1,103 nt of DNA from Escherichia coli. Its GTDB lineage: Bacteria > Pseudomonadota > Gammaproteobacteria > Enterobacterales > Enterobacteriaceae. The position numbers and the translations under genes are program-made. Below are positions 1 to 1,103 of this stretch, one piece after another. The first letter of the stretch is position 1, and the number at the start of each line of letters is the position of its first letter. Location of the stretch: assembly GCF_003334255.1 (NCBI RefSeq), contig NZ_QOWU01000174.1. One strand, given 5' to 3'. A model generated the notes under the pieces. That model searched no databases, was not told the DNA's origin, and saw only the letters and a program-made list of their open reading frames with translations.

Positions 1-2
1 TG

Positions 3-27
3 GTAAGCGTACAGCCTGAACCGTCTG
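3..27 (+). repeat. Putative left terminal inverted repeat (IRL) of the IS66-family element; inner boundary approximate
   Basis: Begins GTAAGCGTACAGCCTGAACCGTCTG. IS66-family termini characteristically start 5'-GTAA. The matching right IR is outside the window, so the length cannot be confirmed. Confidence 0.5.
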
Positions 28-73
28 GTCAGAATCTGACGAATTAGACAAAGTGGTGTCCACCAAATAAGTA
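28..73 (+). promoter_or_regulatory. Leader / putative promoter-operator region upstream of tnpA
   Basis: Holds two short palindromes: GTCAG-aat-CTGAC at 28..40 and TGGTG-tc-CACCA at 54..65. CTGACG at 35..40 is a weak -35-like hexamer. I found no convincing -10 hexamer, so promoter placement is uncertain. Confidence 0.3.
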
Positions 74-475
74 GTGGGAACCAAAGTGTCAGATATGCAG
101 AAAAATGTGACTCCCGGCAGGCGAAAAGGCTGCCCTAATTATCCTCCCGAATTTAAACAGCAGCTCGTTGCTGCCTCCTGTGAACCCGGGATATCCATCT
201 CAAAACTTGCTCTTGAAAATGGCATTAACGCCAATCTGTTGTTCAAATGGCGACAACAATGGCGCGAGGGAAAGCTGCTATTACCTTCTTCAGAGAGCCC
301 CCAGCTACTTCCTGTGACTCTCGATGCAACTGCCGAACAGCCAGAATCGCTCGCAGAGGACCCGGAAACCCTCAGTATCAGCTGTGAGGTAACGTTCCGG
401 CACGGGACGCTCCGCTTCAATGGCAATGTCAGCGAAAAGCTCCTGACTCTGCTGATACAGGAACTGAAGCGATGA
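74..475 (+). CDS. tnpA: IS66-family OrfA/TnpA, small helix-turn-helix accessory protein (133 aa from the GTG at 74; true start may be GTG 86 or ATG 95)
   Basis: ORF 74..475 in frame 2. The segment ISKLALENGINANLLFKWRQQW looks like an HTH, and the C-terminus is leucine-rich (KLLTLLIQELKR). It is first in the operon and its TGA stop overlaps the tnpB ATG. GGGA at 77..80 lies 5 nt upstream of the in-frame GTG at 86, a plausible Shine-Dalgarno; the in-frame ATG at 95 is another candidate. Confidence 0.85.
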   Translation: MGTKVSDMQKNVTPGRRKGCPNYPPEFKQQLVAASCEPGISISKLALENGINANLLFKWRQQWREGKLLLPSSESPQLLPVTLDATAEQPESLAEDPETLSISCEVTFRHGTLRFNGNVSEKLLTLLIQELKR

Positions 476-819
476 TCCCGTTACCTTCCGGGACCAAAAT
501 TTGGCTGGTTGCCGGTATCACCGATATGAGAAATGGCTTCAACGGCCTGGCTGCGAAAGTACAGACGGCGCTGGAAGACGATCCCATGTCCGGCCATGTT
601 TTCATTTTCCGGGGCCGCAGCGGCAGTCAGGGTAAACTGCTGTGGTCCACCGGTGACGGGCTGTGCCTCCTGACCAAACGGCTGGAGCGTGGGCGCTTCG
701 CCTGGCCGTCAGCCCGTGATGGCAAAGTGTTCCTTACACAGGCGCAGCTGGCGATGCTGCTGGAAGGTATCGACTGGCGACAGCCTAAGCGGCTGCTGAC
801 CTCCCTGACCATGCTGTAA
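472..819 (+). CDS. tnpB: IS66-family OrfB/TnpB accessory protein (115 aa)
   Basis: ORF 472..819 in frame 1: MIPLPSGTKIWLVAGITDMRNGFNGLAAKV...RQPKRLLTSLTML. Size and sequence match my recollection of IS66 Orf2/TnpB. The ATG at 472 overlaps the tnpA TGA at 473..475. AGGA at 459..462 is a plausible RBS 9 nt upstream. Stop is TAA at 817..819. This protein is unrelated to the IS200/IS605 TnpB nuclease. Confidence 0.9.
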   Translation: MIPLPSGTKIWLVAGITDMRNGFNGLAAKVQTALEDDPMSGHVFIFRGRSGSQGKLLWSTGDGLCLLTKRLERGRFAWPSARDGKVFLTQAQLAMLLEGIDWRQPKRLLTSLTML

Positions 820-844
820 ATCTCTTTATCCTGGTTGTCACAGA

Positions 845-870
845 ATAAGCCCGGTAAAATACGGGCTTAT
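845..870 (+). promoter_or_regulatory. Perfect stem-loop (9-bp stem, 8-nt loop) overlapping the tnpC start codon
   Basis: ATAAGCCCG at 845..853 pairs with CGGGCTTAT at 862..870; the loop is GTAAAATA at 854..861. The 3' arm includes the A and T of the tnpC ATG (869..871) and the only SD-like GGG (863..865). No U-tract follows, so it is not a typical intrinsic terminator. Confidence 0.55.
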
Positions 871-1103
871 GAACGACATCTCTTCTGACGACATCCTCCT
901 GCTGAAACAGCGCCTGGCCGAACAGGAAGCGCTGATCCACGCCCTGCAGGAAAAGCTGAGCAACCGGGAGCGCGAAATAGACCATCTGCAGGCGCAGCTG
1001 GATAAACTCCGCCGGATGAACTTCGGCAGTCGTTCCGAAAAAGTCTCCCGCCGTATCGCACAAATGGAAGCCGATCTGAACCGGCTTCAGAAAGAGAGCG
1101 ATA
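869..1103 (+). CDS. tnpC: IS66-family transposase OrfC/TnpC, N-terminal fragment (5' partial; runs off the window)
   Basis: Open frame from ATG 869 to the window end with no stop: MNDISSDDILLLKQRLAEQEALIHALQEKLSNREREIDHLQAQLDKLRRMNFGSRSEKVSRRIAQMEADLNRLQKESD. Hydrophobic residues recur at 3-4 spacing (I9, L12, L16, I23, L26, L30, I37, L40, L44, L47), suggesting a coiled coil. It is absent from the ORF track only because it has no stop within the window. Confidence 0.85.
   Translation, partial: MNDISSDDILLLKQRLAEQEALIHALQEKLSNREREIDHLQAQLDKLRRMNFGSRSEKVSRRIAQMEADLNRLQKESD

Follow-up and report, generated by a model that had tools for sequence, protein, structure and literature searches.

Position of the left terminus of an ISEc8-type IS66-family insertion sequence in Escherichia coli

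Background

The DNA considered here, a stretch of 1,103 nucleotides from an Escherichia coli contig that will be called the window, begins with the dinucleotide TG followed by GTAAGCG, and the question that it raises is whether an insertion sequence starts at the third base and, if so, what can be said of the site into which it inserted. The preliminary description of the window placed the terminus of an IS66-family element at the G of GTAAGCG, leaving two bases of flanking DNA. In the literature, IS66 has inverted repeats of 20-30 bp beginning with GTAAGCG and direct repeats of 8 bp (PMC11946415), direct repeats of 8 bp also border captured IS66-family elements (PMC3281130), and in Agrobacterium the 8-bp duplications of IS66 give way to mismatched flanks after recombination between two IS66 copies (PMC6778807). 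The analysis leads to the conclusion, with a probability of roughly 0.96, that an ISEc8-type IS of the IS66 family occupies positions 3-1103 with its left end and that positions 1-2 are DNA of the insertion site. The features on which this conclusion turns are as follows.

1..2, no strand: flanking (target) DNA, TG; all four bases occur at both positions among 43 distinct left flanks
3..1103, + strand: left 1,101 bp (45%) of a 2,442-bp ISEc8-type IS66-family IS, 99.5-99.8% identical to annotated copies
3..24, + strand: left terminal inverted repeat (IRL), GTAAGCGTACAGCCTGAACCGT, identical in 63 of 63 sampled IRL occurrences

Identity and abundance of the element

The right edge of the window cuts through the element, the remaining right 55% of which lies outside. 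Copies that are 99.5-99.8% identical over the whole window are present in 3,060 of 5,426 complete E. coli genomes. Matches on plasmids number 3,541 records in total, in 1,483 of which the copy spans 80% or more of the window, and the plasmid copies are spread over Escherichia, Klebsiella, Salmonella, Enterobacter and other genera. The transposase of many near-identical copies is labelled in RefSeq as "IS66-like element ISEc8 family transposase", and the name ISEc8 is taken here from the RefSeq/PGAP annotation of those copies (99.5% identity), which stands in for the ISfinder reference. By the convention of ISfinder, isoforms of one IS have a nucleotide identity above 95%; the length of the ISEc8 entry in ISfinder presumably agrees with 2,442 bp.

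ISEc8 itself is an IS of E. coli that is widespread in the chromosomes of EHEC/STEC strains and in enterobacterial plasmids, and the window has the same tnpA-tnpB-tnpC layout. Its near-identical copies are 2,442 bp long, have GTAAGCG and CGCTTAC ends and make 8-bp duplications; the window is 99.5% identical to them, and differs from the sampled ISEc8 copies by the combination of single-nucleotide variants A329, G574, G632, A738 and C896.

The left terminus

Within the window GTAAGCG occurs once, at positions 3-9 of the + strand, against a chance expectation of 0.08. A bare 7-mer is weak evidence of a terminus, as it is found in 16 of 200 shuffled versions of the window, and on this ground the motif might be put down to chance and the window regarded as an internal fragment without a real terminus. 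The full 22-nt inverted-repeat pattern, GTAAGCGTACAGCNNGNNCCGT, has its sole match at positions 3-24 and is matched in none of the 200 shuffles; moreover, homology to all other copies ends exactly at position 3 and the target-site duplications abut that base. An internal fragment is therefore extremely improbable.

The boundary was placed with a sample of 16 annotated copies and 46 viral-contig loci, the latter chosen for an exact match to the 51 nt at the left end of the element, which together yielded 63 IRL occurrences in 62 loci with 43 distinct left flanks. In all 63 occurrences sequence identity starts exactly at position 3 of the window, and the flanks outward of it are unrelated. The base immediately outside the element (-1) is G in 17, C in 13, T in seven and A in six of the 43 distinct flanks, and the next base outward (-2) is A in 14, T in 11, C in 11 and G in seven. 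Because neither position is conserved, the TG at positions 1-2 is flank and not element. Alignment to the ends of other IS66-family elements, which the preliminary description had proposed as a check, puts the terminus at the same base. The start that it had assigned, with TG as flank, is upheld by 43 distinct flanks that all diverge exactly before position 3.

A true terminus one or two bases further out, such that G2 or both T1 and G2 would belong to the element and the duplication would be 6-7 bp, is the other reading that the junctions bring up. It could draw on the G found at -1 in eight of the first 11 junctions sampled and on the many BLAST matches that reach query position 1 or 2. Over the 43 distinct flanks, however, the composition of both positions is as mixed as given above, and the duplications GGTGAAGT, TAAAGAAC and GGATATGT finish on a base other than G and yet are perfect 8-mers abutting GTAAGCG and CGCTTAC, which makes an outer terminus very improbable. 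As a candidate element base, G at position 2 was ruled out by the flank statistics and the duplication register. The excess of G or C at -1 (30 of 43 sites) is more readily explained by a weak target preference than by a base of the element.

The right end and the target-site duplications

A scan with the inverted-repeat pattern detected no right end of the element inside the window. In full-length copies elsewhere the element is bounded by GTAAGCG...CGCTTAC, and the distance from the left terminus to CGCTTAC is exactly 2,442 bp. When the IRL is compared with the reverse complement of the right end of near-identical full-length copies, the terminal inverted repeats are imperfect, matching at 13 of 13 terminal bases and 18 of 22 overall. 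The inverted repeat of 20-30 bp from GTAAGCG that characterizes IS66 is accordingly present, the left repeat (IRL) in the window and the right repeat (IRR) on the near-identical full-length copies; the lack of any terminal repeat, which would have spoken against a genuine end, was not what the full-length copies displayed.

A canonical right end together with both flanks is available for 17 distinct sites, and 11 of these are flanked by independent perfect 8-bp duplications, among them GGTGAAGT, AGGCTCTG, CCAGAATG (inside gcl), GGTAACCG, GATAAAAG, GATTGATG, GACATCAG and TAAAGAAC. The probability that one 8/8 match arises by chance is 1 in 65,536. In all 11 the left repeat ends directly before the G of GTAAGCG and the right repeat begins directly after the C of CGCTTAC; the register of the perfect repeats fixes both the terminus and the length of the duplication. 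The 8-bp target-site duplication that the preliminary description had drawn from the family as a whole is thereby documented for this type of element, by the 11 independent ISEc8-type cases and by two more in a divergent relative (L064 and L065, described below).

No duplication is present at the other six of the 17 full-length copies, and the nearest relatives of the window are among these six. Several copies (L004, L014, L015) are truncated on the right.

On one viral contig (L017), two ISEc8 left ends, at 7471-7521 (+ strand) and 10444-10494 (- strand), point towards each other across about 3 kb. This space is too short for two complete copies of 2,442 bp without overlap, and therefore at least one of the two is truncated or the pair has been rearranged.

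Across the 43 distinct sites (L001-L062), the 8 bp to the left of the element show a weak pattern, roughly G-N-T-N-A-A-N-S. At -4 the base is A in 26 of the 43 (p = 2e-5 relative to the background of the flanks); A occurs at -3 in 21 sites, T at -6 in 21 and G at -8 in 18. Prophage contigs are over-represented in the sample from which the pattern was derived. A weak target preference of roughly this form, within the 8-bp duplication, may exist for ISEc8.

The nearest relatives of the window are ISEc8/ISEc22 hybrids

The copies nearest to the window (L001, L011, L012 and L013) differ from it by two SNPs in 1,101 bp and have TG directly to their left. They were fetched from the E. coli strains Ecol_AZ146, STO_Bone1B, M24 and N2512; two further matches, H4 (M70) and H6 (N2456), gave near-identical match statistics. 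All four fetched copies occupy one chromosomal location, with iolG2 and an MFS transporter gene upstream and a truncated helicase gene to the right, in which the element spans 2503-4944 of the locus. The DNA upstream of the element in the L001 group, following the iolG2/MFS-transporter gene pair, ends in GTATTAACAAATG.

In composition these elements are hybrids: the left part of about 1.5 kb is ISEc8, and the right part of about 0.9 kb is 98.9% ISEc22-like, with the IRR GTAAGCGTGCAGCAAGAACCGT. The 8-mers that flank them match at only four of eight positions and hence are not a duplication. This is a signature of recombination of the kind documented for IS66 in Agrobacterium (PMC6778807). The simplest explanation would be homologous recombination between two related IS copies, and the hybrids suggest that two IS recombined and the DNA between them was lost. 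By its sequence, the copy in the window is most similar to this small group of hybrids; the hybrid copies have G329 and G738, whereas the window has A at both positions.

Haplotype and insertion context of the window's copy

The variant combination A329, G574, G632, A738 and C896 is found in none of 35 copies scored, and each variant is found separately in other copies. Relative to the commonest alleles, the encoded changes are A79T in TnpA and K35E and V54G in TnpB. The exact 181-nt pattern of positions 565-745, which includes three of the variants, had no match in viral contigs, species-representative genomes or metagenome contigs, and neither the complete E. coli genomes nor the PLSDB plasmids contain a copy with 100% identity to the window, the best being 99.8%.

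In the case of a simple insertion, the 8-bp duplication of the window's copy would end with this TG. Assignment of an insertion site from these two bases was considered and rejected: the flank is uninformative because this ending is found in six of the 43 distinct flanks, and the statement in the preliminary description that 2 bp are too short to judge the insertion context therefore holds. Nor should a duplication be assumed. Since six of 17 full-length copies have none, and since the closest relatives have none, the window's copy may also be without one, and the odds are about even.

A specific form of this outcome is that the window's copy is itself recombinant or hybrid (for example, ISEc8 on the left and ISEc22 on the right) or else truncated, in which case no 8-bp duplication is to be expected. 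The four fetched relatives, with their two SNPs and flanks ending in TG, are hybrids without duplication, and G574, G632 and C896 are shared uniquely by the window and these four; the frequency of full-length copies without a duplication and the right-truncated copies L004, L014 and L015 point the same way, and the SNP pattern of the window resembles a patchwork of variants that are found separately in other copies. On the other hand, two positions separate the window from the hybrid group, the window is placed at no site, and its TG flank is uninformative for the reason given above. A recombinant or truncated copy is accordingly a serious possibility, falling slightly short of an even chance. 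It touches only the right end, beyond the window; the left boundary at position 3 is unaffected.

Genes and transposition

The window contains two complete genes and the beginning of a third, all on the same strand.

95..475, + strand: tnpA, IS66 accessory protein, 126 aa; match to NF047595 (IS66-like TnpA), 97.1 bits against a cut-off of 74
472..819, + strand: tnpB, IS66 accessory protein TnpB, 115 aa; match to NF033819 (IS66_TnpB), 115.4 bits against a cut-off of 50
869..1103, + strand: 5' part of tnpC, IS66-family DDE transposase, first 78 of 512 codons; start as in the near-identical RefSeq copies

The profile matches are to NCBIfam equivalogs with curated cut-offs. An alternative GTG start of tnpA at position 74 would give a protein of 133 aa, and both starts are in use among RefSeq copies. 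As read from the sequence, the ATG of tnpB overlaps the stop codon of tnpA in the tetranucleotide ATGA (472-475), so that the arrangement by which IS66 elements are recognized, tnpA, tnpB and tnpC in one direction with an ATGA overlap of the first two, is found in the window. The window itself has only the 78 N-terminal codons of tnpC, and the IS66-type DDE transposase was identified through the full-length TnpC orthologue of a near-identical copy (L006), which matches NF033517 (transpos_IS66) with 461.6 bits against a cut-off of 180. Assignment to the IS66 family, as first proposed from the letters of the window, thus rests on profile matches of TnpA, TnpB and TnpC above curated cut-offs and on the RefSeq names of near-identical copies.

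A scan of the window for sigma-70 promoters returned zero sites, and a search of Rfam at gathering thresholds returned no match in the window. One terminator-like match was found in the window (175-159, minus strand), which is within chance expectation.

General knowledge of DDE transposases and of IS66 predicts how such an element would move. TnpC, with the accessory proteins TnpA and TnpB, would recognize both inverted repeats, cleavage would fall at the terminal G/C of the element, and the ends would be joined to target strands cut 8 bp apart, the repair of the gaps giving rise to the duplication. According to the primary IS679/IS66-family paper, that of Han et al. in 2001, transposition of IS679 reportedly needed all three genes.

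A hairpin at the start of tnpC

The spacer between tnpB and tnpC contains the following structure.

845..870, + strand: hairpin with a 9-bp stem, AUAAGCCCG/CGGGCUUAU, and an 8-nt loop; folding energy -20.1 kcal/mol, z = -3.9

Bases paired in the stem include a Shine-Dalgarno-like GGG ahead of tnpC and the A and U of the tnpC start codon (AUG, 869). In one divergent relative the spacer around the hairpin is 96% conserved and the stem is kept by a double change from C-G to U-A (z = -4.6); compared with the ISEc22-like arm on the right of hybrid L001, the 3' part of its tnpC reaches an identity of only about 81.5%. Other relatives have U-G or a U.U mismatch at the position of the C-G pair, and ISEc22 and ISKpn24 carry a small hairpin before tnpC that is different from that of the window. 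A possible role of the hairpin at 845-870 is that of a brake on translation of the transposase. It is doubtful, however, that the fuller proposal will hold in both its parts, namely that such a brake on transposase synthesis is shared by the ISEc8 group and that ISEc8 also has a weak target preference.

Divergent relatives in the IS66 family

In four divergent types of IS, for which nucleotide identity over tnpB-tnpC is 79-92%, the ends are without exception GTAAGCGT...ACGCTTAC.

Unnamed type (L064 and L065): 2,437 bp, GTAAGCG/CGCTTAC ends
Unnamed type (L066): 2,438 bp, GTAAGCG/CGCTTAC ends
ISEc22: 2,441 bp, GTAAGCG/CGCTTAC ends
ISKpn24: 2,454 bp, GTAAGCG/CGCTTAC ends

The L064 and L065 copies are flanked by the perfect 8-bp duplications GTTAGGCC and TTCCATGC. 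The inverted-repeat blocks GTAAGCG(T) and ACCGT are common to the window, ISEc22, ISKpn24, ISCro1 and the two unnamed relatives; the internal block, ACCGT(CTGG), lies about 18 nt in and is common to the four divergent types. The right ends of ISCro1 and ISEc22 in L063 fit the same terminal pattern. More generally, ISEc22, ISKpn24, ISCro1 and IS66 are like the window in having a terminal GTAAGCG(T), an ACCGT block, the three-gene layout and 8-bp duplications.

In an ISEc22 copy on a Shigella boydii plasmid (L070, 1104-1143), the first 40 nt are identical to the IRL end of the window, and the tnpB-tnpC region is about 82% identical. Either ISEc8 and ISEc22 have a left tip in common or they have exchanged segments.

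Implications for annotation

The left tip of ISEc8 at the start of the window is ordinary and already-known biology, as ISEc8 is among the commonest IS of the Enterobacteriaceae, and the importance of the finding is small beyond correct annotation. With its start at position 3, the element can be annotated precisely, and next to nothing of the host surroundings is included in the window. In this group of IS mosaicism is frequent, and ISEc8-type copies are often mosaic or recombined. Because this is so, and because six of 17 full-length copies are without a duplication, a missing duplication at the window's copy would signal an IS-mediated rearrangement and not a wrong boundary.
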